Below, piece after piece: positions 2,607-55,158 of a stretch of 64,000 nt of DNA; the stretch's first letter is position 1; each line of letters starts with the position of its first letter. The stretch is from Candidatus Latescibacterota bacterium (GTDB lineage Bacteria; Latescibacterota; UBA2968; UBA8231). The stretch covers positions 34,942 through 98,941 of the forward strand of contig JAJEFJ010000099.1 of assembly GCA_022820485.1 (NCBI GenBank). The letters run 5' to 3'. A program made the translations under genes and the position numbers. The notes under the pieces were generated by a model, which was not told where the DNA came from, searched no databases, and saw nothing but the letters and a program-made list of their open reading frames with translations.

Positions 2607-2662
2607 GTGATGGCTCAGAAAACCTTTCCATTCGTAGATGCCGTTGAATCGGAACACCTTCG

Positions 2663-3126: not shown

Positions 3127-3172
3127 GCTTGAGCTCCACCCAACCGTCGTATCTACAAGCTCCGCACGTTCC

Positions 3173-4665: not shown

Positions 4666-4699
4666 TTTACCATCTGGTATGTACGGCCGCTGTCGATCC

Positions 4700-5283: not shown

Positions 5284-5531
5284 TACTCAAAGGCGGTATC
5301 GAGGGCTGGCCGGATTTGATGCGGCGGCTGGTTGCGGCCTGCGGCCAAGAAATCCTCCGAGAATTTTCCTTGGATGGAATCGAGCCACGCCCAATCCGTG
5401 ACAACGGGTTCGAGGACTACAGCCACCCCTTGCTTGCGAATGCGCACTTCCTCGCCGTCCATGCGGAATTCCTTTGGCAGCCGAACGGCCTGAGAGCGCC
5501 CAGTCCAAAATAGTTTTGCCGTCTTAGCCAT
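5283..5531 (-). CDS. vapB: VapB / AbrB-SpoVT-type antitoxin
   Basis: 82 aa. MAKTAKLFWTGRSQAVRLPKEFRMDGEEVRIRKQGVAVVLEP is a swapped-hairpin AbrB-like N-terminus. AAGGAGGG lies upstream of the ATG. Confidence 0.8.
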   Translation of the reverse strand: MAKTAKLFWTGRSQAVRLPKEFRMDGEEVRIRKQGVAVVLEPVVTDWAWLDSIQGKFSEDFLAAGRNQPPHQIRPALDTAFE

Positions 5532-21190: not shown

Positions 21191-21285
21191 CGTGGTTGCC
21201 TCATCAGAGAGTCTTAACGCATGTTGGATGTCCACAAGTAAAAACTAAGCTGGACATCAAGCCTCGCATCTTCGTCAGTCTGCTT

Positions 21286-24068: not shown

Positions 24069-24072
24069 TTCA

Positions 24073-25326: not shown

Positions 25327-25399
25327 AAAATTTCTCTGTTAATCTCCTTCTCCAACCTTTTTATCACCAAGGTACGAACTTCAGACTCTATATCTATAG

Positions 25400-26014
25400 T
25401 CAATTAGTCAATCCGTGATCTCTAGCGTAGCTAGAGAAATGACAAGTCTGCCATTCTCGAATTAACGGTAAGAGCGGGTGCTCCACCATTCCTGCCCGTT
25501 TCCAATCAGCATTTATCTCTCCCAAGGAACGTATAGTGTATCCTATCGTACCCACAGAAAGAACAGCTAAACAGCCGCCCGTGGATGGCAACTCATTAGG
25601 TCCCAGATTAGGCGACCCGTCGCCTTCGTAACAAAAACTGGAACCATTAGGTGCAGCCCTTATCCACCTCCAATCAATGTCATCCTGAACCTCTTTAGGC
25701 GATACGTAATATAAATTATTCAATGATTTCACTACATCCTCCGAGCAACGATTTATGGGTTGTATAAACCCTATAAGGTCTGACTCGTTCGGTATGTACT
25801 CAGGGGGACAGTCATCATCTCGACACAATGCCCATCCCCTCCTTGCCACCGCATCTATTATTCGCGCATGGTCGTCAGCCGTCATAGACTTACAACCCCT
25901 AGAGCGAACATACTTGATAAACTTGACAAGGTAGGGTTTCAACTTGATAGCCCCCGTAAGATAAGGACCAAAATCCTCCGGCAGGATTGATAAATGCCTC
26001 TGTGAAAACCACAT
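25400..26014 (-). CDS. Hypothetical protein, first gene of the methyltransferase strand
   Basis: ATG at 26014 preceded by AGGAGG (the track ORF extends to 26044). 204 aa with no motif I recognise. AT-rich codon usage. Confidence 0.5.
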   Translation of the reverse strand: MWFSQRHLSILPEDFGPYLTGAIKLKPYLVKFIKYVRSRGCKSMTADDHARIIDAVARRGWALCRDDDCPPEYIPNESDLIGFIQPINRCSEDVVKSLNNLYYVSPKEVQDDIDWRWIRAAPNGSSFCYEGDGSPNLGPNELPSTGGCLAVLSVGTIGYTIRSLGEINADWKRAGMVEHPLLPLIREWQTCHFSSYARDHGLTN

Positions 26015-26214
26015 GATAATCCTCCTACAAATTCTAAAACGCAAAAAATCCTTGAAAAGGCTTAAAATTTTAATGGAATATCAATCCCAAACCTGAGTCT
26101 AATGTCGAACAAAATGCGAGCGCTTTCCGAGCTTGCCTCCTTACCTACTCATTTGTTCAATATACTTGCCAGAGAGAACACAAGCAAGCGAAGTTATCGG
26201 TGACGAGTACCCGC

Positions 26215-35705: not shown

Positions 35706-36467
35706 CTACTCGGTCCGCGCCAGCATTCCGCCATCTACGGTCAACGCAGTTCCGGTTATAAAGGACGCCTCGTCCGAAGCGAGGAATAGCACGGCGTTGG
35801 CGATATCTTCGCCCGTGCCCAAGCGCTGGGCCGGCACCATCTGGGCGTAGCGCACGCGCTCTTCCTCCGGCACTTGTAGATCATCCCACAGGGGCGTCAA
35901 GATTGCGCCGGGCAGCACCGCGCAGACGCGGATGTCTGGCCCGTAGTCAATGGCGAGGGTCCGCGTCAGGCCCAAAACTCCGGCCTTGGCCGCGTCGTAG
36001 GCCGTGGCCGTGGCAAAGCTGACCAGCGAATGCACCGAGCCGGTGTTGATAATCACGCCGCCCCCAGTTTTGCGCATGATTGGGATGCCGTATTTAGCGG
36101 CGAGGAAAATCGCCTTCAAGCCGATGTTCAACGTGCCGTCCCAATCTTTTTCGTCGAGCTCGGTCGCCGGGCCGTGGCGGAACCATATTGCGTTGTTGTG
36201 GACGATATCTACGCGGCCAAAGGCTTCTTCGGTGCGTGCGAACATCTCGATGACCTCGGCAGACTCGCCCACATCGGTGCAGACGAAAATGGCTTCGCCG
36301 CCATCGGCGTTGATTCTATCGACGACCTGCTGGCCGCCATCGGCGTTGACATCTGCCACGCAGACGGACGCGCCTTCGTGCGCCAGAACTTGAGCGGTGA
36401 CTTCCCCGATTCCCGAGGCTGCGCCTGTTACAATGGCCGCTTTACCGGCGACCCGATCCTTGTTCAT
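35706..36467 (-). CDS. Short-chain dehydrogenase/reductase
   Basis: 253 aa. VTGAASGIGE (TGxxxGxG), NNA, and YDAAK (YxxxK). Confidence 0.85.
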   Translation of the reverse strand: MNKDRVAGKAAIVTGAASGIGEVTAQVLAHEGASVCVADVNADGGQQVVDRINADGGEAIFVCTDVGESAEVIEMFARTEEAFGRVDIVHNNAIWFRHGPATELDEKDWDGTLNIGLKAIFLAAKYGIPIMRKTGGGVIINTGSVHSLVSFATATAYDAAKAGVLGLTRTLAIDYGPDIRVCAVLPGAILTPLWDDLQVPEEERVRYAQMVPAQRLGTGEDIANAVLFLASDEASFITGTALTVDGGMLARTE

Positions 36468-36482
36468 AGTTGATCTCCTGTT

Positions 36483-39400
36483 TCAGAAGTTGGATATGCT
36501 GTCTGTAAATATTCTCTTCATGTAGTCGTATTGCTCGTTGCGCTCGGCGAACAGAATATGCGCGTCGGTAAACCGCGTCTTATCCCAATTACCATCGTCG
36601 TATCGCTTATGAAGGTCGTGGTAAGACGTTGCGGAAACGATGTACGAGTCTAGCGTCACGTCCTGATGCTGACTCCTCGCGCCGGTCTCCTTCGCCAATT
36701 CCGGCAGCCTTTCGTGAAGTCGCGCCTTGTCGTCGTGCAGGTATGCGTTTGCGTGGAGCATTCCGTGCGGCTCAACAAAGACGATGTGCTGTTTCTTACC
36801 CTTTTTGATCCAGAGGATGAAATCGGGATAGAAGCCGCTCGTCTCAAAGAAGCCAACGCCAGCACCGCGACTTAGATTCCGCAGGAGGAACACTTCTATC
36901 CCGGCGAGGGATTGGTCGGATTCGGCTGTCCAATAGGCTTTCACATCCCTGACGAACCGCTGTTCGTTCTCGTTCAACGCTGGGGGTGCGCTCTTTACTT
37001 TATCGCCCTTCTCAATCAACAGAGGCTGATAGAGATGCCGGTCAAAGTGAAAACGGGGCAACTCCTCTGTTTCTTCTGCGTATAGCCGCTCACCTTCATC
37101 GATCAGCTTTTCAATCTCGTCGATTAATGCGTGTTCGGATTGCCGGATGCTGACCACGTATTGGCCCTTGGCCTCCGGCTCTCGGCTAAAGCTCAAATTC
37201 GGATCACGCTCGTCGAGGGGCTTATAGATCATCCGCTCCGACTCCCAACGCTCCCGCCGTACCCGATAGAAAGCGTCCACGTACTTCCGCAAAATACAGG
37301 TTGCGGCCTCTTGTAGGCGATCCACATCCTCAATCGACTGTGGCCGGACGACCGACTCTTCGGCAATCAGACGGTACTGACCGTCGTCCGCGATAATCTG
37401 TCGTGGTACATCCGGCTGCACGATCAAGTTGTCGCGGCCTTTCTGCTCTTTGTATTCGAGTAGGTCGAGATACGCCTGCTCCCAATCAATCAAGGATAAA
37501 CTTTTTGAGGGAATAGACTGCTCGGCACCTGAGTGGGCTCCAACCCCGGCGAGGCCGGTAGGGTCGCTTTCTAAGGCTTGGACCTTCAAGGACATATCGA
37601 CACGCACCGTCACGTCATGGTCGGGCTCCAGGCGAATATCTTCCTCCTTGGCGAAGTCGCGCTCGTCTGGCACTCTGGGTATCACCAATCCCTTTTGTAG
37701 CAAGCTCTCATTGGGACGAATGAACAGCGGCAGTTCCCGGTATGCTTCGGTCTCTACGCCTTCCCGCTCCAAGTAATTACGGAATTTATCCATGTAGTTG
37801 GCACGCACTGCGAAGATGTTGAGCGTTTCCAGCAAGCCAATGTGATTCGGGTGGTTGCCGTCGTCTAGCGCTGCGCTCCGCTTGAGACTAGCGCCTTTGC
37901 CTCGCAGGCGCACCCCGCGCCCGAAGAGCTGGATGATTTCCGAGCCCTCGCTGCGGCCGATGTTCAGCAGACCCATATTCGAGACGCGCCAAGAGTTCCA
38001 GCCCTCCATGAACTTCTTCGCGCCAATCAGGACCTCAATCTTGGTATGCGGTCCATTGATGCCATCGAACAGGGAGCCAGCCAGTGCGTCCTCCTCCAGC
38101 GTTAGACCGGCGTCGTCGGACTCTACTAGATTCTTGAATGCGCTAATATCGCCGATGTAGATGAGACCGAAGTAGGATTGGGCACCGCTTGCCTTGAGAC
38201 CCAATTCGCCAGCGGCCCCTCGGATCGCGCACAAGTGCAATCCGCCGCCGGCCGGGACGTGGAATACCTTTTCTAGGATGTCTTGGTATATCCCATCGGG
38301 GGGCTGTTCCATTGCCCGCAGGTACTTGAATTTCTCCGCAAACACGTCCAGGCCGTCTGGTGCGATCAAACCGCTCTCGCCTTTGACGAGTCGCTCAATG
38401 ACCGACAGCACCCAGCCACCTTTGTTCTCCAGAACGCGATGTAGGAACCGCGCCACCGTCAGCACGTCGCTATGTTTCTGCTTCTTCTTGGAATACACCG
38501 CGTTCACTGTGCTACCCACGAAGACCCACAGCGGCCGTTCCAAGTGATAAGGTCGCAACGCTTGGGCGTGCTCGGCGAACACGCATTGCTGTTCGTAGAA
38601 CGACAGTAGGTTGCCGAGCAAAAGCGTCTCTGTCGCCTCCTCGGTCGTCTCCTCCAAGAGGTTGAGCACGCGGAAGTCCTTGCCGTACCCGTCGCCGTGG
38701 AAGTAGCGGTACGAGTAGTCAAAGACGATGGCTTTCCCGTACTCCACCGTAAGCTCGTTCTTACTCGCCGCGCTCAGGGCTTGGCCGAACGTGGCACTAT
38801 ATTCAAAGGTAAAGCCGCGCTCGCCTAGTGCGTCGCGAAAGCTGCGCCATGCTTCGCCTCCCGATCCTTTGTGCCCTTCATCGACGAAAATCAGGTTGTT
38901 GCCCTCGAATGCCTCGACGGGTACGCTCACACCGCCGCCGCGCTTTTGCTCAACCAGTTTGGTTATCTCAATGACCCGGACCACGTCGTTTGCGTCCATC
39001 ATCAGACCGCTCTCGTCGAGGTCGAATCTCCGGCAGGGGATATCCGAGGCCGTCATCTCTTCGAGATGCTGATCGCTTAGCCCCTCGTTGGGGGTAATCA
39101 GCAGAACGTTGTCTAGGGGCTGATTATTGTAGTACAGGAATTGGCGGTAATTGAAGTGCATGATGAGGGTTTTACCGCTGCCGGTCGCCATCCAAAAGGC
39201 TAGTTTTTTAAGGTCGGATTCAGAAAACGGCTCACCGGCATCGCGCTCAACGACAAACTCGTTCAGAGAGCGGAGCATCTCTCCCCGGTGGTTGAAGTAT
39301 CCATCGAGGAACACTTCCGCGTAGAGCGCCGCCAAGTACTGGAAGTAGCGCAAGGTAATCGGCTCGGAGCGGCGGGCGTTTATGGCGTGCAGATGGTTGC

Positions 39401-39626
39401 GGATATTGTCGTCGTACTCGGCCAAAGTGTCCGGCGAAATGCTCACCGCGTCCCCGCGACTTATCAGCCGATGATAGACAAAGCTGTGGCCTTCGGCATC
39501 GAATCCCTCGTCAGAATCCTTCATACCCGCCAGTAGGTCGCGGTTGTGCTCGTAGCCAAACTGTCGGTTGAGCCATGCTAGCAGGACTAGGTGCTGCTCC
39601 AAGTTGGCGATTTGAACTGGCGGCAT
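36483..39626 (-). CDS. res: Type III-like restriction subunit: SF2 helicase plus a C-terminal PD-(D/E)xK-like nuclease
   Basis: 1047 aa. WMATGSGKTLIMH (motif I), LIFVDEGHKG (motif II), and the C-terminal FYPDFILWIKKGKKQHIVFVEPHG. The start lies 2 nt after the hepT stop. Confidence 0.75.
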   Translation of the reverse strand: MPPVQIANLEQHLVLLAWLNRQFGYEHNRDLLAGMKDSDEGFDAEGHSFVYHRLISRGDAVSISPDTLAEYDDNIRNHLHAINARRSEPITLRYFQYLAALYAEVFLDGYFNHRGEMLRSLNEFVVERDAGEPFSESDLKKLAFWMATGSGKTLIMHFNYRQFLYYNNQPLDNVLLITPNEGLSDQHLEEMTASDIPCRRFDLDESGLMMDANDVVRVIEITKLVEQKRGGGVSVPVEAFEGNNLIFVDEGHKGSGGEAWRSFRDALGERGFTFEYSATFGQALSAASKNELTVEYGKAIVFDYSYRYFHGDGYGKDFRVLNLLEETTEEATETLLLGNLLSFYEQQCVFAEHAQALRPYHLERPLWVFVGSTVNAVYSKKKQKHSDVLTVARFLHRVLENKGGWVLSVIERLVKGESGLIAPDGLDVFAEKFKYLRAMEQPPDGIYQDILEKVFHVPAGGGLHLCAIRGAAGELGLKASGAQSYFGLIYIGDISAFKNLVESDDAGLTLEEDALAGSLFDGINGPHTKIEVLIGAKKFMEGWNSWRVSNMGLLNIGRSEGSEIIQLFGRGVRLRGKGASLKRSAALDDGNHPNHIGLLETLNIFAVRANYMDKFRNYLEREGVETEAYRELPLFIRPNESLLQKGLVIPRVPDERDFAKEEDIRLEPDHDVTVRVDMSLKVQALESDPTGLAGVGAHSGAEQSIPSKSLSLIDWEQAYLDLLEYKEQKGRDNLIVQPDVPRQIIADDGQYRLIAEESVVRPQSIEDVDRLQEAATCILRKYVDAFYRVRRERWESERMIYKPLDERDPNLSFSREPEAKGQYVVSIRQSEHALIDEIEKLIDEGERLYAEETEELPRFHFDRHLYQPLLIEKGDKVKSAPPALNENEQRFVRDVKAYWTAESDQSLAGIEVFLLRNLSRGAGVGFFETSGFYPDFILWIKKGKKQHIVFVEPHGMLHANAYLHDDKARLHERLPELAKETGARSQHQDVTLDSYIVSATSYHDLHKRYDDGNWDKTRFTDAHILFAERNEQYDYMKRIFTDSISNF

Positions 39627-39628
39627 TT

Positions 39629-39973
39629 CTATGCCTCTTCACCGACGATGGCTTGCAGTTGTTCAATGAGCGGCGGCAAGTCGTTCTGAATAATTTTCCA
39701 TAGAATATCTAGATTAGCGTCATAGTAGCCGTGAACTAGTCGGTTACGCAGGCCGATAATCTGGGGCCAGGGAATTTCTTGGTGGCGCTGCTGTGTATCC
39801 TCGGAAACGCGGTTGGCCGCTTCGCCCACAATCTCTACCAATTTCTGCAGGGCGAGTTGCATTACTCGGTCTTCTATCAAGTCATTCAGAGTTGCTTCTC
39901 CTAGTAAGACGACGGCTTCCTCAGCGTGGATGAGCATATCCACGAGGCTTACCCGGTCGTCACGCCTGCTCAT
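39629..39973 (-). CDS. hepT: HepT (DUF86) HEPN toxin
   Basis: ATG at 39973 in track ORF 39629..40132. It carries the GLRNRLVHGYYD motif (R-x4-H-x-Y). 14-nt overlap with mntA. Confidence 0.85.
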   Translation of the reverse strand: MSRRDDRVSLVDMLIHAEEAVVLLGEATLNDLIEDRVMQLALQKLVEIVGEAANRVSEDTQQRHQEIPWPQIIGLRNRLVHGYYDANLDILWKIIQNDLPPLIEQLQAIVGEEA

Positions 39974-40271
39974 ACTGCACCTCTGCCGAACTGAGTATCT
40001 CCTCCCGGAGCAGCCAATTGCGACTGCTTTCGACTCCCCTGAAAGTGTGCATATCCACTTTCCGCCCAAGTATCTCCGACAGCTCGTCCTGCATGGTGAT
40101 GAACCCCAGCCCCGGCGTCTGGTCCGGTTCAAAGTCCACGATTACATCCACGTCGCTTTCAGGTGTGAAGTCATCGCGCAGCACCGAGCCGAACAGGGCC
40201 AGACGCCGGATGTGGTTGCGCCGACAAAATTTAGCGATCTCGTCTTTTGGAATTTCGATTCGCGCATTCAT
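39960..40271 (-). CDS. mntA: MntA-type minimal nucleotidyltransferase antitoxin
   Basis: 103 aa. LALFGSVLRDDFTPESDVDVIVDF is the G-S-x10-D-x-D motif. Confidence 0.85.
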   Translation of the reverse strand: MNARIEIPKDEIAKFCRRNHIRRLALFGSVLRDDFTPESDVDVIVDFEPDQTPGLGFITMQDELSEILGRKVDMHTFRGVESSRNWLLREEILSSAEVQYEQA

Positions 40272-40303
40272 GGCGTTATTCCTGAAAACATTGTGTCATT
40301 TCT

Positions 40304-40720
40304 TTATTGACGTTGCTCATGGTCTTTTTCGTAAATCAACTTTTCAGCCCAACTCACGACTGTTTCGGCAAGACCAATAACCCGCCGATATTCTTCGTCA
40401 TCGACGGGTTCACTACTCCTAGGATATCGAGATTCAACAGCATAGTCTGTTAGGATTGCACTTTCTTCTACCTCTTGAGGGACATCGACACCTTCGGGTA
40501 AAAGATCGAGCAATGTTCTGATATTGTGCGTTCTAGGGAAATCAATTTCAAGAAATATCAAAACGGCTTTCAATGTCTTTTCAGCAGCTTGCTGGGCATG
40601 GAAACAGAGATTTTCCAGCAAGACACCTTCCGGTTTTTCTATGCGGGCAAGCTCCAAGTCGCTTTTAGCGTAACGAAGCCAATCCTCAGCGCTACCTGGA
40701 ACACGAGATTCAGAGTCCAT
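40304..40720 (-). CDS. HEPN-domain protein (classical HEPN family)
   Basis: 138 aa. WLRYAKSDLELA...CFHAQQAAEKTLKAVL...PRTHNIRTLLDLL...LTDYAVESRYP. Confidence 0.8.
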   Translation of the reverse strand: MDSESRVPGSAEDWLRYAKSDLELARIEKPEGVLLENLCFHAQQAAEKTLKAVLIFLEIDFPRTHNIRTLLDLLPEGVDVPQEVEESAILTDYAVESRYPRSSEPVDDEEYRRVIGLAETVVSWAEKLIYEKDHEQRQ

Positions 40721-41090
40721 AAATCTCTATACCTTCCTTTAAAGCACTTTTATAGATCAAGCCCCTATTATCCTTGTACTTTTCCAAGTCCTGCGGGGTT
40801 GCTACTACGATATCAAAGGGTACACCCAAACCCGTAATTTCCCGATACAGCTTCTGCGCCGTTCTCCGTCGGTGAACACCCTCGGGCATGACTACGAGCA
40901 GATCGATGTCGCTATGCTCTCCTGCGTCTCCTCTGGCGGCTGAGCCAAAGAGGATTATTTGTAGAGGGTTTACACTCTTTACAATGTCGCCGACTAATTT
41001 ATCTATGACCGTGCGAGCCGTTTTATCTTTGCTTCCAGCGAGGCTTCGACGGTCGGGTCCACCAGTAGCTTCTTCAATGGTGTTGTTCAT
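40710..41090 (-). CDS. Nucleotidyltransferase-domain protein (MNT partner of the HEPN protein)
   Basis: 126 aa. ILFGSAARGDAGEHSDIDLLVVM. 11-nt overlap with the HEPN gene. Confidence 0.8.
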   Translation of the reverse strand: MNNTIEEATGGPDRRSLAGSKDKTARTVIDKLVGDIVKSVNPLQIILFGSAARGDAGEHSDIDLLVVMPEGVHRRRTAQKLYREITGLGVPFDIVVATPQDLEKYKDNRGLIYKSALKEGIEIYGL

Positions 41091-41132
41091 GGTATGTTCC
41101 TGCAGTTCTCAGTGTCGTCGTATGAGTCCTTC

Positions 41133-44100
41133 TTATGCCTGTGTCTCTGCAAACATCCGTCGTTTGAACACTGGTTCCAGCGCCTTGGCCTCACGGATTA
41201 AGGAATCGCCGTTGACATAGACCTCGTCCGCGCCGTCGGTCAGTTGCTGCTCGGCTACGAACTCCTTGTCGCGCACCAGAGCGGCCTTATCCCAGCCTTG
41301 GGTTTCTCGCCAGATGACGACGATCCGCTGCTGGTCAATCTGGCCGCGATAGACCAAGTATCGCCGGTCGTCGTCATAATATACGCGCCGCGTCTCGACG
41401 CGCAGGCCGAGCAAGTAGTTGAAGGTCTCTGGGATGTCGGAGATTTGCTGCCGCGTCTGACCGTCGGCGTGGATGTGCAGCGTATAGCGGAAGGGCTGCG
41501 ATAGCTTCTCCACGTTCAGCAGGGTCGCGCTGCGCTTGGTTTCCCATTGGAGCATGTACTTGAGCAAGTAGTCGTCGAACTGCAACGCTTGCTGCGCGGA
41601 ATCCTCGTCGAAATCGATGTTGTTCAGCGCGTCCTCATAGCTTTCGAGACGCATATACTTGATGATACGCGGTCCATGCTTGGCCTCTTGAGGTTTTGCC
41701 ATGCACTTGGGCTTGCCATCCTTCCATTGGGGCGTGAACGCGACCTTTTTGATACGCGGTAGGAGTACGGTGTCGAAGTGGTTACCCATCTCGACAAGGA
41801 TGAATTTGCGTTGGCCTCCGTCTTCTCGATTCAGGTTGATGACGGCGTGGCCGGTTGTGCCAGAGCCGGCGAAGTAGTCGAGGATCGTCGAAGTCTTTCC
41901 ACTCCAATAGCGAAGACAATCCACGACCAAATGTACTGATTTAGGGTAGCTGAATTGTTGATCTCCGATGACATCAATAAGGAGCTTAGTCCCATGAGTT
42001 GTAGCAGAGTACTTTGAGTCTGTCCATAGCGTTTTTGGTTTCTTGCCTTTGGGCATTCGAGATTTCTTAACTATCTCGAACCTCCCTGCTTTTTCGATAA
42101 CCGAAATATCGCCACTCTTAATGTCTCGACGCGCCCCTTCTGGATTGTTGCGCCAAATTCGCCTCTCTCCCTTTGGGTCGATCGGCCATATTTCTTCAGC
42201 ACCCTCGAATGAGTCAACACTCACTTGTCTTGTGTCTCGGTCAATGTAGAGCGGATACCACTGTCCTGGTCGGTCAGACGGACGCGAATTACCTCCTCTT
42301 CGACGCAAGTTGTCCCAAAGAAAAAATCCTGTCTCATCCTTATGGTTATACGCTTCCCTCTCTTCTGCCGTCAGATCGCGTTCCTGCATTTCCGTTTGCT
42401 CAATATCGTTTGCATAAACATGACAATAGTCGTGACTGAGTGCAGGTGTATTAGGGCGTATGTTTTGTCCTGCGGGGTTTACCTCAATAGCAATCGTCGC
42501 GATTCGATTATCTTGTCCAAAACATGTGTCCAAAATACTCCGAAGTTTCCATGTCTCTGTATCATCAATCGCACACTGCAACACACCTTGCTCGGCCAAA
42601 AGTAGCTTCGCCATGCTCGCTCGATTCTGGATCATAGCCAGCCATGATGAGTGTTTATATTCATTCTTGTAAACGAAAGTGTTTTCGCTCGTGTTATAGG
42701 GAGGATCAATGTAGATCGTGTTCACTTGCTCCCGGTAACGTTCCTGCAACGCATTCAACGCCTGCCAATTTTCACTGCGGATCAGCACCCCATCCGTCAT
42801 CCCTTCCAAGTCATCAAAGCTACCCAATAGCCGATCCACGAAATCTCGGTCGAAGTGTTTGCTATCGAGGACGAGTGTCGGATGCGCTCTTAAGAACTCA
42901 ACGCGCTTGCCTGCCTTGTCCTTGCTCGCGTTGAACAGGTCGATTTGATCTTCGTCAATGCTGAACAGCACCTTCCATTCGTCCCACTGCGCTTCACACC
43001 CGGCGATGTCCTCATAGAAACCCTCGTCAATGTGCCCAACCGCAATGCAATAGTGCGTCTCGGTGACGAACTTGCGCTTCTCCCACAACATTTTCTGGAA
43101 GCCTTCAATCTGGTCGAGGAAGTCGATAATCTGGCCGCCGACCGACCGAATCGTCCGCATCATCTGAAACCAGCCCTCAGAGCGGTCCTCGCCAGCCACT
43201 TCCATATCGCCGAGGTTCAGCACCTCGTTCTTCAGGTAGAAATCGAGTTCGCGGACGAGAAAGCCCTTCAGATCCTTGTGGATGAAGAAGTCCGACGTGT
43301 TCCGCCGAGTATATTGGCGCAAGTGGTGTTCGAGAAAGGAGACAGCCTGCCCGTCGTCGTTCCGACGTTTTTCACCCGTCAAGGCCGCCAGTGCGTCAGG
43401 TGTCTTATCCAACTGCTTGGGAATCTCTGCCACAGCTTTAGTGATGATAGTCTCCTGCTGATTCTTCTTGCCGTAAGTAATTTCCTCCTGTTCAGTCAGG
43501 GGCCGATACTCAAACGGAATGTCGAGTCGCTTGGCCTCCGCGTCCCAAGTAGGTGCCTCAGTGCATGGCAGAAAAAACCGCTTGTCGCCCTTGATATTGT
43601 CCTGCTCAATGTCGGCGACCTGAAGTTTGAAATGCACGGTGATGTCACGCACTGCAAACGAATAGTCGCGGAAATGCTCGCCGGTCTTGATGTAGTATTG
43701 GTCGCTGTTGGCCCAATGGAGATGCACTTCTTCGCCGTTGTACGGAATGGCGTAGCGTTGGCGTTTGGAGTATCGACGCTTAGAGATGAAATCGCCATCT
43801 TGGTAGTATCGGCTAAAGAAGGCGTATAGGTGATTGAAGATGGCCGCTTCGAGAGCGTCGCGGCCTTGGCCGCCTGCGGATTTAGCCTTCAACTCCAAGT
43901 ATTCCTTACCAAGCGGCGTGTTGTGATATATCTCTGCCAGATTCCCATCAGCATCGATGGCATCGTCCCCAAAGTTTCCCCCAATCCGCTGACGAACCTC
44001 CTGTAAACTTTCCTCAACCTGTGCTTGCTCGGCCAACGCGCCGCTTTCGAGTTGCTCAGCTATCGCTTTTGGCAAATCATCGGTTATGAATCGCTCAATA

Positions 44101-44210
44101 ACCTCTCGTTTATGGTTCATTATGCGGTATATGCCAAAGTCCAAATCGGCGCAGTCGAACTGAAATAGCTCGCGCAAAAGCGTCTGGAAAATGGCTAGGG
44201 GATTAGTCAT
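41133..44210 (-). CDS. mod: Large Mod-type N6-adenine (beta-class) DNA methyltransferase with an about 470-aa N-terminal extension
   Basis: 1025 aa. NTIYIDPPYNTSENTF (motif IV, residues about 499-514) and LDYFAGSGTTGHAVINLN (motif I) downstream. The N-terminus has LDFGIYRIMNHKREV and FFIHKDLKGFLVRELDFYLKNEVL. Confidence 0.8.
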   Translation of the reverse strand: MTNPLAIFQTLLRELFQFDCADLDFGIYRIMNHKREVIERFITDDLPKAIAEQLESGALAEQAQVEESLQEVRQRIGGNFGDDAIDADGNLAEIYHNTPLGKEYLELKAKSAGGQGRDALEAAIFNHLYAFFSRYYQDGDFISKRRYSKRQRYAIPYNGEEVHLHWANSDQYYIKTGEHFRDYSFAVRDITVHFKLQVADIEQDNIKGDKRFFLPCTEAPTWDAEAKRLDIPFEYRPLTEQEEITYGKKNQQETIITKAVAEIPKQLDKTPDALAALTGEKRRNDDGQAVSFLEHHLRQYTRRNTSDFFIHKDLKGFLVRELDFYLKNEVLNLGDMEVAGEDRSEGWFQMMRTIRSVGGQIIDFLDQIEGFQKMLWEKRKFVTETHYCIAVGHIDEGFYEDIAGCEAQWDEWKVLFSIDEDQIDLFNASKDKAGKRVEFLRAHPTLVLDSKHFDRDFVDRLLGSFDDLEGMTDGVLIRSENWQALNALQERYREQVNTIYIDPPYNTSENTFVYKNEYKHSSWLAMIQNRASMAKLLLAEQGVLQCAIDDTETWKLRSILDTCFGQDNRIATIAIEVNPAGQNIRPNTPALSHDYCHVYANDIEQTEMQERDLTAEEREAYNHKDETGFFLWDNLRRRGGNSRPSDRPGQWYPLYIDRDTRQVSVDSFEGAEEIWPIDPKGERRIWRNNPEGARRDIKSGDISVIEKAGRFEIVKKSRMPKGKKPKTLWTDSKYSATTHGTKLLIDVIGDQQFSYPKSVHLVVDCLRYWSGKTSTILDYFAGSGTTGHAVINLNREDGGQRKFILVEMGNHFDTVLLPRIKKVAFTPQWKDGKPKCMAKPQEAKHGPRIIKYMRLESYEDALNNIDFDEDSAQQALQFDDYLLKYMLQWETKRSATLLNVEKLSQPFRYTLHIHADGQTRQQISDIPETFNYLLGLRVETRRVYYDDDRRYLVYRGQIDQQRIVVIWRETQGWDKAALVRDKEFVAEQQLTDGADEVYVNGDSLIREAKALEPVFKRRMFAETQA

Positions 44211-44247
44211 AACTCATTACCTTTTATTGATTCATGCAAATTTTTGT

Positions 44248-45330
44248 CTAGCTCAATCGACATGCCGGCGCAAACGTCTCAATCTCCCAATCGTCTTGCG
44301 AACCGAACTTCCGGCGAAGACGGATCATTCCGGGGGGCAGAGCCACGCGACTGATCCTTTTGCTGGTTTCCCTGATTGTCCTTTCTATCGCTCTTGTCCT
44401 GTTCCGTAATGATTTGCGAATGGGAACGTCGATTGGTGCAGTTGCGTAAGCCTTTTTTGTAAATGAGAGAATACGTCGTACATCGCCCTCCGTCGGCAAC
44501 ACCCGCCCACCTTTTTGCCACGGAGTGAGTGCCGCTATTGGTTCACTATGCAGCATCTCACTCCACATTCGATCTTCATGGGCATTCTGGGAGCCATGAT
44601 GTGGAATTTTGAAAACTGAGGCTTTGCAGTTTGGACGTTCACGGGCAGCGAGTATCTCTAACCAGCCGCGTCCTTCAAGATCAGATCCAAGAAGTATTAC
44701 TGCATCTTCAATTTTAATCAACAAAACGACTGCAATTTTGTTCGGCGTCAAGGTATGAGTACGTCTTTTGGTTTCGCGTTCCTGTGGTCGGAGACGGCCT
44801 ATTTCTTGGAGGAACAGACCAAAATCCTTGTCGAAAGGTGAGAGGGCCCATATCTCGCAACCGTCGCGGTTGAAAATGCGACGGTTGGCGATGGCGAATA
44901 CAGGCTTGGAAGACCTTGCAGCAAGCAATGAGAAGACCTTGTAGAATTCCTGCATTCCAGAGCCAGTCTTGGACATAGGGCGGCTCGCCATAGCACCCAC
45001 CGCCGCGAGAAACTCATCCGTACGCAGAACACTTGCACAGCAGAACGTCGCCTTGTCACAGACCTCGACTAATTTTCCCATGCCGCGTATATGGTCGTCA
45101 TGCCAGTGGGTGGCGACGATGAGGCGAACCGCTTCAGTAGGATTTAATCCCATATCGCGGAGATAAGCCAACGCCGCTGGATGCGACTCCGCGTTTAGGC
45201 AGGAATCGACAATTACCCAATTTCCATTTCCTATATGAAGGAGTATACATTCTCCGTAACCAGGCCCTATAACCGTCACTTCCATCACATTGTGTTTAGG
45301 CGGCACTCCACGGGCAGTTAATCCGCCCAT
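44248..45330 (-). CDS. Metallo-beta-lactamase-fold protein
   Basis: 360 aa. MEVTVIGPGYGECILLHIGNGNWVIVDSC, VATHWHDDHIRGM (HxHxDH), and FKIPHHGS. The start overlaps the upstream gene by 13 nt (alternative ATG at 45285). Confidence 0.75.
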   Translation of the reverse strand: MGGLTARGVPPKHNVMEVTVIGPGYGECILLHIGNGNWVIVDSCLNAESHPAALAYLRDMGLNPTEAVRLIVATHWHDDHIRGMGKLVEVCDKATFCCASVLRTDEFLAAVGAMASRPMSKTGSGMQEFYKVFSLLAARSSKPVFAIANRRIFNRDGCEIWALSPFDKDFGLFLQEIGRLRPQERETKRRTHTLTPNKIAVVLLIKIEDAVILLGSDLEGRGWLEILAARERPNCKASVFKIPHHGSQNAHEDRMWSEMLHSEPIAALTPWQKGGRVLPTEGDVRRILSFTKKAYATAPIDVPIRKSLRNRTRAIERTIRETSKRISRVALPPGMIRLRRKFGSQDDWEIETFAPACRLS

Positions 45331-45929
45331 AACTGAGCGACCCTCCTAGCCCATTCCTCCCCTTCGGCTATATCCTGTTTGGTCACAACAGGAAGGTCGC
45401 GAAAGACGATTTGGGAGACGCGCCGCTTGGTTCCACTTGCGGAACGCTCATAGCCGATGACCCAGCGAAAAATGCTGCCGAGACGCAGACGCCTTAGATC
45501 GTCTTCTGAAATCTCGGAAAGAGGAATGACGGCTTCTTCCTCTTCATGCGAGGAATCGGCGGTCAGGTCTAACAGCCGCGCTGTGAAGTCGTCTTCTCCT
45601 GTCTCTATGACATATCCTTCCCATTCCTGAAGCGCATGGAATGTTATCCGGGACATGGTCTGTGATACTTGATCTAGGCTAGGTAAATCAATGATCGAGC
45701 TAACATCGGAATTGATCCCGGCTGACGTCGGGCGATTTTCAATTGAGGTCTCTGCGCCTCCGGGGTCGCGTAGAGTAGTTCCTTGGGTTTGTTCTAGTAC
45801 AGCCTCTACACGTTTAGGATGTCTTTCTCGAAGCAACTGGTCAGAGGTGCTAAGGACACTCGAACTTTCATTGACATCGGATAAATTGTTACGTCTGTTG
45901 TCCACAAGGGTGAATGCTGTCTCCGACAT
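45318..45929 (-). CDS. Hypothetical protein (disordered-looking N-half, about 110-aa C-terminal domain)
   Basis: 203 aa with no recognisable motif. Tightly packed between neighbours (2-nt gap upstream). Confidence 0.5.
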   Translation of the reverse strand: MSETAFTLVDNRRNNLSDVNESSSVLSTSDQLLRERHPKRVEAVLEQTQGTTLRDPGGAETSIENRPTSAGINSDVSSIIDLPSLDQVSQTMSRITFHALQEWEGYVIETGEDDFTARLLDLTADSSHEEEEAVIPLSEISEDDLRRLRLGSIFRWVIGYERSASGTKRRVSQIVFRDLPVVTKQDIAEGEEWARRVAQLWAD

Positions 45930-45931
45930 AC

Positions 45932-46627
45932 TTATCTCCTTGTTAATGACATAATGTGATCGATGATTTGATCTGCACGCCGAAGAGATTCATCAAAGTT
46001 ATCCTCCAGCAGCATAACAATCTCACGGGTCCCCATTTGGCTCTCTACATTCTCAATGATATAGTGGTCGTTGACCTGAACGTAAACGCCGGGCCGACCT
46101 CTGCCGATCTGGTTTGATGGTTGTACTACCACGTTTACTCGTCCACCGAGCGGTCTCCCTTCTGGATTGATCTGTGTCATGGTAAGGGAAGTCATGCCGC
46201 CTTGTTCCTCGTCCGATTCAAGTTTCTTGCCCCAGTCTCCCCAAGGCTCGACAGGTGCCAGCAGTCTGCCGAGGCGATTTTGCTCGCCAAAGCTCCGTAA
46301 GGGAAAATGCACTTCCCGGTTGATTCCTAGGACTTTAAGGGGCATATGGGGAAGGTGTTCTCGGAAAATACGGATGGCTAGGTCCCGCAGACGAATGAAG
46401 GGGGCCTGAGTCGTGTTAATTAGGAAGGATTCTGGTTGGACATGCAGGTTGAGCCAATCCGCATTGAACATCGCAATCTGGGGATGAATAATTTTCGTAT
46501 CTGCGATTTCGGCAGTCCTTTCGGAAAGAAGCCCATGCCATCCGAACCACGCAGGTGTGAAAATTGCAGGATTGAAATGGCCGAGCATGACGAGCGAGAC
46601 ACCAGTGATTTCGGGTTCAATTCTCAT
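45932..46627 (-). CDS. Hypothetical protein
   Basis: 231 aa, first gene of the array. LKVLGINREVHF is faintly reminiscent of the R.GLRY.N block of TIGR04255-type proteins, which is not enough to assign it. Confidence 0.5.
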   Translation of the reverse strand: MRIEPEITGVSLVMLGHFNPAIFTPAWFGWHGLLSERTAEIADTKIIHPQIAMFNADWLNLHVQPESFLINTTQAPFIRLRDLAIRIFREHLPHMPLKVLGINREVHFPLRSFGEQNRLGRLLAPVEPWGDWGKKLESDEEQGGMTSLTMTQINPEGRPLGGRVNVVVQPSNQIGRGRPGVYVQVNDHYIIENVESQMGTREIVMLLEDNFDESLRRADQIIDHIMSLTRR

Positions 46628-46708
46628 TGCTGATTACTCCTTGAGTCAGCTCTCGGAGTTGTCCGAGAGCTATGCTCCGATGGCTCATGCGCTAGTTATA
46701 AATAACGC

Positions 46709-46765
46709 TTACGCCTCGACCTCTGCAAATATCCGCCGCTTGAACGTCGGCTCCAGCGCCGGTAG
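46709..46765 (-). pseudogene. Remnant of the 3' end of a second mod gene
   Basis: The minus strand reads ...PALEPTFKRRIFAEVEA*. The intact Mod ends ...KALEPVFKRRMFAETQA* (41133..41189). The nucleotide similarity is obvious by eye. Confidence 0.65.
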
Positions 46766-46821
46766 GCGCGTCGAACTGTAATGCTTGCTGCACAGCAGCA
46801 CATAACGCTCTGTACAACCCC

Positions 46822-47166
46822 TCAGACGTGCAATTGCAAATCAAACACTAGCTCCATATTGGCCCACCACTCACCCTCTTTGGCCTCGGGCACCTGCTGC
46901 TGAAAGGTCCGCATCAGTTCGTCCCATTCCTTCGCTTTGGGATTCTGCTCGACGTAGCGCGGGAAGTCGCGGGCTGGGTCGAACTCGTCGGTCGCGGTCA
47001 TGTACATGAACATCCGCTGGCCCAAGAGAAAGATTTTCATGTCGGTGATGCCGACCTCGCCTAGGCCCTGAAGCGGCTCGGGCCAGGGGTCGGCGTGGTA
47101 TGCCTTGTACTGGGCGATCAGTTCGGAATCGTCCTTCAACTCAATGGTTAGGCCAAAGTGCTGCAT
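46822..47166 (-). CDS. L-rhamnose mutarotase-like (RhaM/DUF718) protein
   Basis: 114 aa. YKAYHADPWPEPLQGL...GITDMKIFL...MFMYM...WANMELVFDL follows the RhaM pattern. Confidence 0.6.
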   Translation of the reverse strand: MQHFGLTIELKDDSELIAQYKAYHADPWPEPLQGLGEVGITDMKIFLLGQRMFMYMTATDEFDPARDFPRYVEQNPKAKEWDELMRTFQQQVPEAKEGEWWANMELVFDLQLHV

Positions 47167-49878: not shown

Positions 49879-50670
49879 TTACGCACTTGGATGCCGCAGT
49901 CGCTGCAACTCGTCGGGCAGGTGCTCGGTGCGGTTGAGATATCTGATAACCGTGGTGCCGCCGGGCGCGAGCGCGACGCGGGTAATCGCCGTGTTCTCGT
50001 GCTCGTAATAGGAGCCGTCGTCCGGTGCTTGGTTACCCAAGGCCGAAAGCAACAGGCTCATAAAGCCGCCGTGGGTCACGAAGCCGATGCGCGTATTCTC
50101 CCCCGCCCGCGCTCGCAAGTCTGCGGCTACGCCGATAGCGCGGTGCTGGGCTTGCTGCTCCGTTTCCTTGCCCGCGTCCCACCATCCGTCTTCGCCGACT
50201 TCCGCCGATGGGATGCTAGTGGGAAAACGCGCGGCAATCTCCGCTCGCGTCAGGCCGGGATAGCCAACGGTTCCCCGCTCGCCGCCGTGGTCGAGGAAAA
50301 TGCCGCCCATCTCGTGAATAGCTACCCAGATCTCCGACTTCGATTCCATTGCCTGTTCGATCGCTTGCCCCGTGTGTAGGGTGCGGATCATTGGACTGCA
50401 ATAAAGCTGGTCAAAAAAGGGCCGATCCTCTGCGCGCTCGGTCGGGGCGAGGTGCAACCCCTCCGCTAGATATGCAGCTACCCGCTCGGCCTGTACTCGG
50501 CCTTTAGCGGTCAATTCGGGATCGGCGACGCGCTGGCTGACATCGGTCAGCGCGTTATTGGTGGACTCGCCGTGGCGGATCAGAAATAGGTCCATAGCCT
50601 CCTCAAAAGTGATATGGTTATCGAGGGCGTTGTTGGTGGACTCGCCGTGGCGGATCAGAAACAGGTCCAT
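49879..50670 (-). CDS. Histidine-phosphatase (phosphoglycerate-mutase-family) protein; the 5' end is duplicated, alternative start at 50595
   Basis: MDLFLIRHGESTNNAL occurs twice, 25 codons apart. The RHGE catalytic motif is present. Confidence 0.75.
   Translation of the reverse strand: MDLFLIRHGESTNNALDNHITFEEAMDLFLIRHGESTNNALTDVSQRVADPELTAKGRVQAERVAAYLAEGLHLAPTERAEDRPFFDQLYCSPMIRTLHTGQAIEQAMESKSEIWVAIHEMGGIFLDHGGERGTVGYPGLTRAEIAARFPTSIPSAEVGEDGWWDAGKETEQQAQHRAIGVAADLRARAGENTRIGFVTHGGFMSLLLSALGNQAPDDGSYYEHENTAITRVALAPGGTTVIRYLNRTEHLPDELQRLRHPSA
50552..50670. repeat. Direct duplication of the 44-bp gene start, 75 bp apart
   Basis: 50552..50595 and 50627..50670 differ at 2 of 44 positions by eye. 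Confidence 0.9.
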
Positions 50671-53309: not shown

Positions 53310-54407
53310 ATGAGAAACAGGCTTGATGCGATAACTCTCAAAGGGTTCAAAACCATTCGAGAGCTGAAGGATTTCAAGCCTCGTCCCTTGACTGTGCTGA
53401 TTGGACCCAACGGTGCTGGCAAGTCCAATTTTATCTCTTTTTTTCGCATGATGAGAAGGGCGTTGGAAGACCAGAATAGTCTTCAGTTTTATGTAAGTCA
53501 GCAAGGCGGTGCTAGTACCTTGTTGCACGATGGCCCGGACGAGACCCAAGAGATTGAAGCAGCACTGACGATTCAGACAGATGCTGGCGAAAATCAGTAC
53601 GCGTTTCGGCTGGTTTTTGCGGCAGGAGATATCTTGGTTTTCGTGGACGAGCACTACATGATTCCTGATAGAGGTCATGGTTGGTCATCATCGAAAGATA
53701 TCGGACATCGCGCTCCACAAATCCTTGAGCAAGCTGGCCAAGAAGAGTCTGCTCGTGTTGTTCTGGATCTCCTACAAAAAATCGTCGTCTATCAATTCCA
53801 CAACACATCGGACACCGCTCGCATACGCAGGAAATGGGGTACATACGACAACCGCTGGTTGAAGGCGGACGCTGCCAATATTGCGCCCTTTCTGCTTCGC
53901 TTGAAGGAAGATGACAACAGGTGCTATCAGCGGATTGTAGATACTATTCGGTTAATCCTGCCTTTTTTTTCTGATTTCGTGCTGGAGCCACGACACGAAC
54001 ATCTCCTTCTGAACTGGCGCGAGCGAAATAGTGATCAGGTATACAGTGTGTCGCAGGCGTCGGATGGCATGTTGCGGGTCTTATCGCTTGTTACCCTTCT
54101 CCTTCAGCCAGAACGGGATTTGCCGGACGTTTTGATTCTCGACGAACCGGAACTTGGATTGCACCCCTATGCTATTAACGTCGTCGGCGGTTTGATAAGC
54201 GCTGCATCGACCAAGGTCCAGGTCATCGTCGCTACGCAATCCACGGCGCTGGTCGATTGCTTTGAGCCAGAGGATATTGTCGTCGTTGAGCGCGAGGGTC
54301 GCAGCTCTACTTTCAGGCAGCTAAACGCCGAAGACCTCAAAGAATGGCTTGAAGACTATTCGCTTTCCGAGTTGTGGGAAAAGAACGTGCTCGGAGGGCG
54401 ACCGTAG
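53310..54407 (+). CDS. ABC-type (AAA_21-like) ATPase
   Basis: 365 aa. LIGPNGAGKSNF (Walker A), SDGMLRVLSL (signature-like), and VLILDEPELGLHP (Walker B). Confidence 0.8.
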   Translation: MRNRLDAITLKGFKTIRELKDFKPRPLTVLIGPNGAGKSNFISFFRMMRRALEDQNSLQFYVSQQGGASTLLHDGPDETQEIEAALTIQTDAGENQYAFRLVFAAGDILVFVDEHYMIPDRGHGWSSSKDIGHRAPQILEQAGQEESARVVLDLLQKIVVYQFHNTSDTARIRRKWGTYDNRWLKADAANIAPFLLRLKEDDNRCYQRIVDTIRLILPFFSDFVLEPRHEHLLLNWRERNSDQVYSVSQASDGMLRVLSLVTLLLQPERDLPDVLILDEPELGLHPYAINVVGGLISAASTKVQVIVATQSTALVDCFEPEDIVVVEREGRSSTFRQLNAEDLKEWLEDYSLSELWEKNVLGGRP

Positions 54408-55158
54408 TGGGCATCAGACTGAATTTCATCGTTGAGGGGCAGACCGAAGAAGCGTTTGTAAAACAGATATTAAGTCCGTATCTAGCGGGGTTTGAGGTCT
54501 GGGCGCAGGTTCGCTGTGTCCTAACGAGCCGGAGTCGCAACATTAAATATCGTGGGGGTATTGATAGTTATGGGAAGGCCAAGAATGATATCAATGCTTG
54601 GATAAAAGAAGATCGGAATTCGGACGTGCGTTTCACAACTATAGCGACCGCAAAACAAATCCTGAGTTTTTGACTCCTATAAAACGTGAGAATCCGTTTT
54701 GCGGTCGCTATATGTTCGATGTGTACGGTCTGCCGACGAATTTTCCCGGCCACAAAGACGCGAAGCAGAGATTCGACCCCTACGGACGGGTCAAGGTACT
54801 GGAGGACGCTCTGAGAGAAGACATTTCTGATCGGCGATTTATCCCGCATTTTCAGCTTCACGAATTCGAGGCATTATTGCTGTCCGATCCTCAGAAACTC
54901 GATTCGCAGTTTGATAACAGCACTGGAATACGACAACTTGTCAATATGGTCGCCGGTTTTGACTCGCCGGAGCTCATTAACGACGGAAATAACACTGCCC
55001 CTTCAAAACGAATTATCGACGAAATACCGGAATACGAAAGAATGAAACCATCCGCGGCTCCTATTGTTGCGGAGAAGATCGGATTGCCTACGTTGCGATT
55101 GAAATGTAAACATTTCGGCGAATGGCTTTGTAGGCTGGAGACGCTGAATAAGGAGTGA
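54407..55158 (+). pseudogene. DUF4276-family protein gene interrupted by a 71-bp insertion
   Basis: GTG at 54407 overlaps the ATPase stop (TAGTG). Track ORFs 54374..54673 and 54598..55158 are in different frames. Removing 54641..54711 restores ...NSDVRFTT|MFDVYGLPTNFPG..., the expected continuous DUF4276 sequence. Confidence 0.7.
54642..54710. mobile_element. 69-bp MITE-like element with 15-bp perfect terminal inverted repeats and a TA target duplication
   Basis: tagcgaccgcaaaac (54642..54656) pairs with gttttgcggtcgcta (54696..54710). It is flanked by TA at 54640..54641 and 54711..54712. Confidence 0.65.

Follow-up and report, generated by a model that had tools for sequence, protein, structure and literature searches.

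A three-gene cassette, here termed A-B-C, lies directly upstream of mod, the methyltransferase gene of a Type III restriction-modification (R-M) system, in a 64,000-nucleotide (nt) stretch of a Candidatus Latescibacterota genome (contig JAJEFJ010000099.1, positions 34,942 to 98,941; hereafter the window). The cassette is a real conserved unit that is horizontally exchanged across phyla. It is self-contained and mobile, and settles with a clear preference in methylation-based immune loci. It is judged probable, if by no means assured, that A-B-C is a defence-type cassette in its own right, absent from the catalogues, with a DNase as its effector and separate from the Type III system beside it. 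The three genes, all of them open reading frame (ORF) calls, are arranged as follows:

45932..46627, minus strand: gene A, 231 amino acids (aa); uncurated family, predicted internally duplicated alpha+beta fold.
45318..45929, minus strand: gene B, 203 aa; predicted disordered acidic N-terminal half, acidic OB-like beta-barrel and C-terminal helix.
44248..45330, minus strand: gene C, 360 aa; putative ComEC-like metallo-beta-lactamase (MBL)-fold metal-dependent nuclease (predicted effector) with a very basic C-terminal tail.

As a preliminary description of this DNA had it, A and B are separated by 2 nt, B and C overlap by 13 nt and 37 nt lie between the stop codon of C and the start of mod (44210). 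The ORF positions reproduce this layout, and an independent gene call, the public one for the source contig (ENA ERZ23491379, scaffold_190, 124 kb), yields the same A, B and C products. The description had also treated the three genes as one cassette, and a co-occurrence check on the neighbourhoods of homologues bears this out. A search with a profile of A, at one genome per species, returned 135 relatives among 185,579 species genomes; 80 loci were fetched, and A, B and C are colinear on the same strand in 78 of them, with one locus ending at a contig edge and one having no C, a regularity far beyond what chance would give. About 72 of the 80 look intact, the others being decayed by an insertion sequence (IS) between B and C or by truncation of C. 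Mantel tests on the pairwise identities of the three proteins (50 loci) gave r = 0.82, 0.71 and 0.82 (p = 0.001 for each). Six distant loci, in which the identity of A drops to 27-37%, keep the order A-B-C; five are on IMG/VR contigs and the sixth is on an Adhaeribacter swui plasmid. Three out of three C homologues used as seeds have unannotated genes of the size of A and B upstream. Neither direct or inverted repeats flanking the cassette, which would mark a transposable unit, nor a recombinase dedicated to it were found.

The carriers of the 80 loci span at least 12 phyla or classes. At the genome loci all are metagenome-assembled genomes (MAGs), drawn from Latescibacterota, Poribacteria, Gemmatimonadota, Dehalococcoidia, Acidobacteriota, Binatia and Spirochaetia, together with Alpha- and Gammaproteobacteria, Rhodothermales, Thermodesulfobacteriota and Entotheonella. 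The isolate names of several carriers presumably refer to sponge or coral holobionts. The sole cultured carrier found is A. swui KCTC 52873, whose cassette is borne on the 117-kb plasmid NZ_CP055155.1 (locus L086 in our numbering, 3121-5471 of the record). RefSeq labels its A and B homologues 'hypothetical protein' (WP_185269975, WP_185269974) and its C homologue 'MBL fold metallo-hydrolase' (WP_185269973). The plasmid cassette adjoins genes for a DEAD/DEAH helicase and a recombinase family protein (Gene Ontology: DNA recombination).

The product of gene C was the only one that the preliminary description could assign, as a ComEC- or nuclease-type MBL rather than a beta-lactamase, and profile and structure searches agree. 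C matches Pfam Lactamase_B at 32.1 bits (cut-off 22.7; 1.4e-7) and carries the motifs H75-W-H-D-D-H80 and H244-H245-G-S. Across 51 homologues D42, H75-x-H77-x-D79-H80, D217 and H244-H245 are invariant, so that the metal-binding motifs of the MBL superfamily are present as the Asp of motif 1, HxHxDH of motif 2, the Asp of motif 4 and the C-terminal His. The classical motif-3 His is not evident, and invariant cysteines (C44, C91, C98 and C158) occur in that region. Among solved structures the family profile is best matched by ComEC MBL domains (9ic4_A, 2.5e-8; 30bt_A, 1.8e-6), with the KVPHHGS block included in the alignment, whereas beta-lactamase structures give much weaker matches. Relative to the ComEC MBL the profile has about 40 more positions between aligned blocks (97-204 vs chain 81-148). 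C is also basic, with an isoelectric point (pI) of 9.5 that rises to 11.3 in the tail (residues 263-360, about 100 aa). Among PADLOC models it matches the RT-associated MBL (5e-13), the Lamassu MBL (5e-12) and PDC-M48B (5e-7). The closest defence models overall are the MBLs of DRT, Lamassu, PDC-M48, 6A-MBL and Avs1, all of them with scores far under the family cut-offs; in PHROGs, phrog_28593 is matched at 3e-40. On this sequence evidence C appears to be a ComEC-like MBL nuclease whose active site is intact. It is related to Avs1a, HamM and CanC, the "gated" DNases of defence systems, and by analogy with these it would act on DNA.

The C gene is a repeated site of disruption. Transposase genes of the IS1595 family (L032, 11754-12707) and of the IS4-type DDE_Tnp_1 (L070, 11282-12481) sit exactly between B and C, and C is truncated in L010, L016, L044 and L066. 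Inactivation that recurs at this gene would be in keeping with a nuclease that is costly to carry.

A and B had been described as lacking any recognisable motif, and the profile libraries are indeed silent on both. Neither protein matches a model in Pfam, NCBIfam (June 2026), PADLOC v2.0.0 (2023) or PHROGs, neither belongs to a curated family, and sequence-profile searches of each against the PDB returned noise only. None of the 556 close homologues of A or the 1,377 homologues of B has a Pfam match, and 73 divergent members of the A family gave no meaningful Pfam or NCBIfam match, only a single chance-level match in each library. At E<=1e-3 a profile search collects 2,424 clusters (50% identity) for the A family. 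A TIGR04255-type assignment, which had been suspected, was dropped because no NCBIfam match supports it. A is strongly conserved (mean column identity 58-71%), and its AlphaFold 2 model (pLDDT 88, pTM 0.86) consists of two similar beta-alpha-beta(3-4)-alpha halves. Foldseek matches this model to solved structures of the AdoMetDC/prozyme and Bet v 1-like types with high probability, but at a TM score of only about 0.3. In a viral structure library there is one good match, at TM 0.59-0.66, as well as weak matches to a putative TBP and to VETF-like proteins. On these matches a duplicated TBP-like or helix-grip-type fold for A is kept as a lead only.

The B family aligns with a variable N-terminal half and a conserved C-terminal domain of ~110 aa (QEWEG, FRWVIGYE, SQIVFRDLP). 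The low-complexity N-half and compact C-terminal domain noted earlier are clearly separated in the AlphaFold 2 model, where residues 1-79 fall below pLDDT 50 and are predicted to be disordered, while blocks within 91-200 average 89-97 and residues 90-203 are confidently predicted to form five strands and a terminal helix. Foldseek places the compact domain among OB folds (LysRS N-domain, Csl4, eIF5A, Stn1) with a best E of 4.6e-3 and a probability of about 1. B is markedly acidic (pI 4.6, net charge about -15), as is the barrel alone (pI 4.7; family median 4.8). The domain has a predicted OB-like topology, for which the Foldseek E values are weak, but it is acidic, whereas nucleic-acid-binding OB folds are closed five-stranded barrels whose ligand-binding face is basic or aromatic. 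It had been proposed that A and B are specificity or regulatory partners of the nuclease. The first of these roles is unproven, and for B the second fares better, in that a protein of pI 4.6 looks more like a regulator or inhibitor of a basic nuclease than a reader of nucleic acid.

The genomic setting separates the cassette from the system next to it. In the window the following features, all on the minus strand, surround A-B-C:

46628..46821, minus strand: 194-nt spacer upstream of A, the expected promoter region; holds a mod pseudogene scar (sequence comparison).
41133..44210, minus strand: Mod, Type III methyltransferase, 1025 aa; context only, outside the cassette (PADLOC MTase_III 8e-178; Pfam N6_N4_Mtase 1.3e-25).
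39629..41090, minus strand: two nucleotidyltransferase/HEPN-type toxin-antitoxin (TA) pairs between mod and res; context (ORFs).
36483..39626, minus strand: Res, Type III helicase-nuclease, 1047 aa; context (PADLOC REase_III 4.8e-141; Pfam ResIII 4e-11).

Together Res, the TA pairs, Mod and A-B-C make up a block of ~10.3 kb (36483-46821) with 48-58% G+C, compared with roughly 60-65% in most of the flanking sequence, bounded by an SDR gene (35706-36467) and the L-rhamnose mutarotase gene rhaM (46822-47166). Mod and Res, which are both required and together enough for Type III R-M, are bona fide here, and the preliminary description had placed A-B-C at the head of their operon. By co-occurrence the cassette fails membership of that system. 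Type III R-M genes stand beside it in just seven of the 80 loci and in three arrangements: A-B-C-Mod-TA-Res, as in the window; Mod-Fic-A-B-C-(MNT)-Res; and Mod-...-Res-A-B-C. At the window's own rhaM...SDR site in Latescibacterota MAGs, A-B-C and a small TA pair are found with no Mod or Res in L002, L005 and L022, and A-B-C with Mod, TA and Res in L003, L004 and L006. MNT/HEPN-type pairs homologous to those of the window also recur beside the cassette in relatives. The link to this Type III system is incidental, because it is confined to seven loci, takes three forms and is missing from syntenic copies without mod and res. That the cassette heads the operon here is a local accident, since elsewhere it stands before mod, between mod and res, or after res.

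Co-transcription of C and mod in the window is nevertheless plausible on sequence grounds, because no terminator-like site was found in the 37-nt gap between them. Scans for promoters and terminators told little, since the sites did not outnumber those expected from shuffled sequence. The minus strand of the 46628..46821 spacer yielded no sigma-70-like site, and the window no tRNA or Rfam element. The mod scar in that spacer is real and slightly longer than first noted (about 46710..46791, against 46709..46765). It is a frame-shifted, internally deleted mod 3' end that reads 'AAVQQALQFD' out of frame and then 'LPALEPTFKRRIFAEVEA*', where Mod has '...SAQQALQFDD...KALEPVFKRRMFAETQA*'. Its DNA is 81-85% identical to the mod 3' ends of relatives, and by ORF coordinates the distance from rhaM to A is only about 64 nt in the closest relatives with the same gene order. 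The two TA pairs downstream lie at 40710-41090 with 40304-40720 and at 39960-40271 with 39629-about 39980. Their MNT and HEPN domain names are a reading of the sequence; in L088 the domains NTP_transf_2 and NTase_sub_bind are present in a similar pair. For the second HEPN gene the mechanical ORF (39629-40132) overlaps the MNT gene, and the true start is probably near 39980. In relatives the slot between mod and res holds one TA pair, two, or a Fic/DOC gene.

The commonest recognisable context of the cassette is the Hma system, in 26 of the 80 loci (23 with HmaC/HmaB flanks and three with a DUF7680 remnant only). In the usual slot A-B-C lies between HmaC (a DUF499 ATPase) with a DUF7680 gene and HmaB (a DUF1156 methylase), which is followed by a PLD-SNF2 helicase; the matches in relatives reach 6.6e-97 for HmaC, 1e-69 for HmaB and 8.5e-74 for the PLD-helicase. 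The core genes of this BREX-related system, for a DUF499 ATPase, a DUF1156 N6-methylase and a helicase-nuclease, are absent from the window, and within Hma loci the cassette is a passenger, not a core component. Elsewhere the same slot is occupied by GmrSD_N, ABC-ATPase/DUF3696, AAA_21+HNH (Septu-like) or STAND-TPR genes, types that have been shown or proposed to be embedded defences (10.1101/2024.01.29.577857; PMC12839542). Complete Hma operons with A-B-C inside are seen in L076 (6418-18541) and also in L020, L023, L041, L045, L058, L062, L067, L068, L071 and L089. Their HmaC, HmaB and HmaA proteins share 57-96% identity between phyla, mostly about 65-73%, from which it seems that the whole island of Hma and cassette is exchanged horizontally. 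The DUF7680 gene always stands between HmaC and the embedding slot, and its product may be an unrecognised Hma component.

Type I R-M genes directly precede the cassette in at least two further loci (L013 and L090). L090 (1-11083) is a dense defence island in which HsdR-HsdM-HsdS is followed by A-B-C, an ImmA/IrrE-type peptidase and HTH pair, and E2/E1/JAB and patatin genes (CBASS-like). The remaining picture is one of independence: 47 of the 80 loci have neither an Hma nor a Type III neighbour, and the 41 of these that were scanned are flanked mostly by unrelated housekeeping genes and few defence genes. The earlier proposal that the cassette moves as a unit within R-M contexts is supported by its nesting in Hma, Type III and Type I loci, whereas an R-M context is not the rule, most loci having no R-M neighbour at all in the neighbour scan. 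The proposed autonomy of A-B-C is supported by its varied positions in Type III loci, its occurrence without mod and res at the same site and its housekeeping neighbours.

The same nesting makes an MBL-nuclease defence module, as the preliminary description had suggested, the best inference, given that the cassette is found in Hma, Type III and Type I loci and shares its Hma slot with Septu-like, GmrSD-like and STAND genes. There is precedent for such guilt by embedding, as seven of nine Hma-embedded candidates that were tested gave protection (10.1101/2024.01.29.577857). A-B-C would then be a horizontally exchanged module of the phage-defence or abortive-infection type. C is most likely the effector, a putative ComEC-like MBL-fold metal-dependent DNase, because the characterised stand-alone ComEC-like MBLs in defence are pro-nucleases; HamM, Avs1a and CanC are DNA-specific and inactive until infection (PMC12799240). 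Translational coupling would yield C alongside A and B, and in uninfected cells C would be held inactive, with B masking its basic DNA-binding surface or tail as a trans-acting, antitoxin-like gate. An inhibitory complex of the two would be the most economical arrangement because B is acidic and C basic, their reading frames overlap and half of B is predicted to be disordered. A, a predicted pseudo-dimeric alpha+beta protein of a new family, may act as sensor or scaffold, linking a cue of infection to the release of C, and the freed C would degrade DNA. Since no protease is detectable in A-B-C, and no conserved protease neighbour was found in the 80 loci, this control must differ from that of protease-activated MBL systems. 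Inside Hma/DUF499, Type III and Type I loci the cassette would form an independent second layer.

The specific roles proposed here for A and B are considerably less probable than the defence-type cassette itself. A similar degree of doubt attaches to the fullest form of the proposal, in which A-B-C is an unrecognised and widespread anti-phage system (~2,400 A clusters), its protease-free ComEC-like pro-nuclease gated in trans by B and governed by sensing through a possibly TBP-like A, that nests in Hma, Type I and Type III loci and has swept through more than a dozen phyla of MAGs.

Several observations count against an autonomous defence cassette of this kind. The fold assignments of both partners are weak (E about 5e-3 for B; TM about 0.3 to solved structures for A), and an acidic OB-like barrel, if the model is right, could still bind protein or nucleic acid in unforeseen ways. 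No sensor, ATPase or protease domain is detectable in A or B. More than half of the loci lie outside recognisable defence islands. The few distant copies in predicted (pro)phages fit a prophage-borne defence and would equally fit a function on the side of the phage. Finally, A-B-C appears undescribed in libraries of which PADLOC dates from 2023, and it may have been named more recently.

The frequent company of R-M genes invites a different explanation, an unlikely one, in which A-B-C depends on methylation-based restriction systems, which it guards or complements as an accessory or back-up effector, firing, for example, when the host's R-M or Hma system is inhibited. PrrC is an analogue for Type I R-M, and PARIS-like modules have been proposed for BREX. 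In keeping with this, 33 of the 80 loci (about 41%) have the cassette inside or beside Hma or Type III genes and others follow Type I R-M; there is the missing terminator-like signal between C and mod in the window; and embedded back-up nucleases have been described for BREX and DUF499 systems (PMC12839542). A specific guard, however, would be expected to co-vary with one partner, whereas A-B-C is found in three unrelated host architectures at varying positions within them, persists at the window's own site in relatives that have no mod and res, and in 47 loci, with mostly housekeeping flanks where scanned, has no Hma or Type III system to depend upon.

It is distinctly unlikely that A-B-C is instead a selfish, TA-like addiction module without a role in phage defence, with C as toxin, B as antitoxin and A as regulator or chaperone. 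The small, acidic and partly disordered B, just upstream of and overlapping a basic nuclease gene, has the appearance of an antitoxin, and scattered insertion sites, spread across phyla, frequent decay (the IS insertions in L032 and L070 and the truncated C genes listed above) and the common proximity of MNT/HEPN TA pairs all accord with addiction. Nesting in multigene defence operons, at the slot of validated defence genes, is nonetheless much more specific than residence in islands in general, and the very high conservation of A (58-71%) argues for a function beyond autoregulation. In any case TA and defence functions are compatible with each other.

ComEC combines OB and MBL domains. The match of the C profile to the ComEC MBL domain, with the OB-like barrel of B alongside, echoes that architecture and would suit a ComEC-analogous housekeeping module for DNA uptake, repair or recycling, yet this is very improbable, as the cassette has no membrane or competence domain, no conserved competence, repair or recombination genes nearby, an acidic barrel and a patchy distribution resembling horizontal transfer (135 relatives among 185,579 species genomes).

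Distant A-B-C cassettes are present on five IMG/VR contigs. On L083 (3315-10288, predicted viral) the cassette lies between terminase large subunit and portal genes, and on L082 (1734-10872, predicted viral, 39% G+C) between replication-initiator/anti-repressor and queuosine-pathway (tRNA-ribosyltransferase/QueC-like) genes. Such copies, together with the phrog_28593 match, could be taken to mean that A-B-C is of phage origin and serves the phage in counter-defence or host-DNA degradation, with chromosomal copies as prophage remnants; this is very improbable, since A (in two versions) and C, used as queries, had no homologue in isolated phage genomes (50,697 records), conserved phage genes were not found around the cassette in the 80 genome loci, and embedding in Hma operons is not a prophage signature. 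The anti-defence role raised in the preliminary description is likewise unsupported apart from these few distant copies on predicted (pro)phage contigs.

Further features were noticed elsewhere in the window. At its start (1419-5283) lies a second, apparently degenerate Type III-like R-M system, in which the match of ORF 3173-4036 to Mod is limited to the C-terminal catalytic region (31% identity over Mod residues 715-808, E 2e-10), ORF 1419-2657 has helicase motif I (ETGTGKTY) in only 412 aa, and a PIN-like ORF (4858-5283; 'LLDTNACIALL') adjoins the two. A low-G+C stretch (46-53%) at 21196-26044 contains four large ORFs, one of which (24073-25326, minus strand) reads '...NLHPYPAKF', which we take to be an N6/N4 DNA methyltransferase motif, and it may be a further R-M system. 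A gene pair of low G+C (47-50%) at 53310-55158 resembles a defence-type module of two genes. The first encodes an ABC/AAA_21-type ATPase (GPNGAGKSN, 365 aa). After it come ORFs 54374-54673 and 54598-55158, which overlap and lie in different frames, and the second gene may be frameshifted; the 'IVEGQTEEAFV' of ORF 54374-54673 is presumably that of DUF4276. A histidine-phosphatase-like ORF (49879-50670, minus strand) has a duplicated N-terminus in which 'MDLFLIRHGESTNNAL' occurs twice, 26 residues apart, pointing either to a tandem duplication of 78 nt or to an artefact of the assembly.

Should A-B-C prove to be a defence system, it would represent a new mode of control for the ComEC-like MBL DNase. 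Hachiman, AVAST, Lamassu, DRT and canu already employ this effector, under proteolytic control. The families of A and B, both large and wholly without annotation, would also gain a function. Guilt by embedding is seen here in a clean natural form that reaches to Type III R-M, and the cassette would likewise exemplify a defence module passed among many phyla of uncultured bacteria. With a cultured carrier at hand in A. swui KCTC 52873 (plasmid NZ_CP055155.1), the hypothesis is directly testable.

That the cassette is undescribed, as first suggested, is consistent with the profile searches, which tied A and B to no known pathway or described defence system, and with the literature, in which neither a three-gene system of MBL and OB proteins nor a survey of sponge-symbiont defences describing the cassette was found. 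PADLOC-DB v2.0.0, which includes models of Hma, HEC and PDC, has no match to A or B. Several described MBL systems can be compared by score. The Avs1a equivalog (NCBIfam NF041809) gives C 22.7 bits, below its cut-off of 420. The 6A-MBL model (NF058524), which like A-B-C has an MBL-fold effector, gives 26.4 bits over 77 residues only, below a cut-off of 220; the partner that the name of that system presumably implies is absent from A-B-C. PDC-M48 is likewise excluded, the match of C to PDC-M48B being partial (27.5 bits or less, N-terminal 77 residues) and A and B having no match to PDC-M48A.

ComEC is the closest solved relative of the C catalytic domain; the two have the '...KVPHHGS' motif in common, and in both an OB-type barrel, in B a predicted one, is associated with the nuclease. 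C reaches 17.8 bits against TIGR00361 (ComEC_Rec2; cut-off 190), in the MBL part only. In ComEC proper the OB (DUF4131), polytopic competence and MBL domains are united on one membrane protein, whereas C has a soluble size of 360 aa and A-B-C has no transmembrane competence domain, an OB-like domain on a separate acidic protein and no competence context. C is also longer than the ComEC MBL, with some 40 additional residues separating motif 2 from motif 4 and a basic tail of 100 aa. Type II TA systems resemble the cassette in having, to judge from the sequences, a small, acidic and partly disordered protein directly upstream of and overlapping a basic nuclease, but A-B-C has three genes, the first of which encodes a highly conserved 231-aa protein, and no DNA-binding antitoxin domain is detectable.

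The gated MBL/protease systems (HamM-HamAB, Avs1a-Avs1b, the Lamassu and DRT(UG9) variants and CanABC) share more. These pro-nuclease/protease systems include the three-gene caspase-nuclease CanABC (Tuck et al., Science 2025; PMC12799240; PMC9226505). As in A-B-C, a stand-alone ComEC-like MBL is encoded by a separate gene, the modules are exchanged between otherwise unrelated immune contexts, and the best defence matches of C, namely the RT-associated and Lamassu MBLs of PADLOC and Avs1a of NCBIfam, are MBLs of gated systems. CanABC, like A-B-C, has three genes with the nuclease last, whereas in the trypsin-type pairs the nuclease lies upstream of its partner. The gated pairs differ in having an adjacent protease, trypsin-like or of the caspase family, by which the nuclease is activated; neither a trypsin, a caspase or other Pfam signature nor a conserved Cys/His dyad was found in A or B. 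Their nucleases also contain two disordered insertions that cover the active site and bear conserved residues for cleavage. Identity of the cassette with canu was accordingly rejected, A having neither the caspase signature nor the dyad.

The Hma-embedded candidates HEC-01 to HEC-09 and PDC (Payne et al., 2024 preprint; 10.1101/2024.01.29.577857) are the other close parallel. Both they and A-B-C are small cassettes placed between HmaC and HmaB; they recur within other systems of the R-M type and stand alone more often than they are embedded. There is no MBL in any of HEC-01 to HEC-09, and A-B-C was for this reason rejected as one of them; nor does the survey of 'back-up nucleases' in BREX and DUF499 systems mention MBLs (PMC12839542). 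The HEC and PDC screens used RefSeq genomes, whereas A-B-C is concentrated in uncultured MAGs. Of the described systems, the gated MBL nuclease modules are closest to the cassette in its presumed mode of action, and the Hma-embedded candidates in its appearance.

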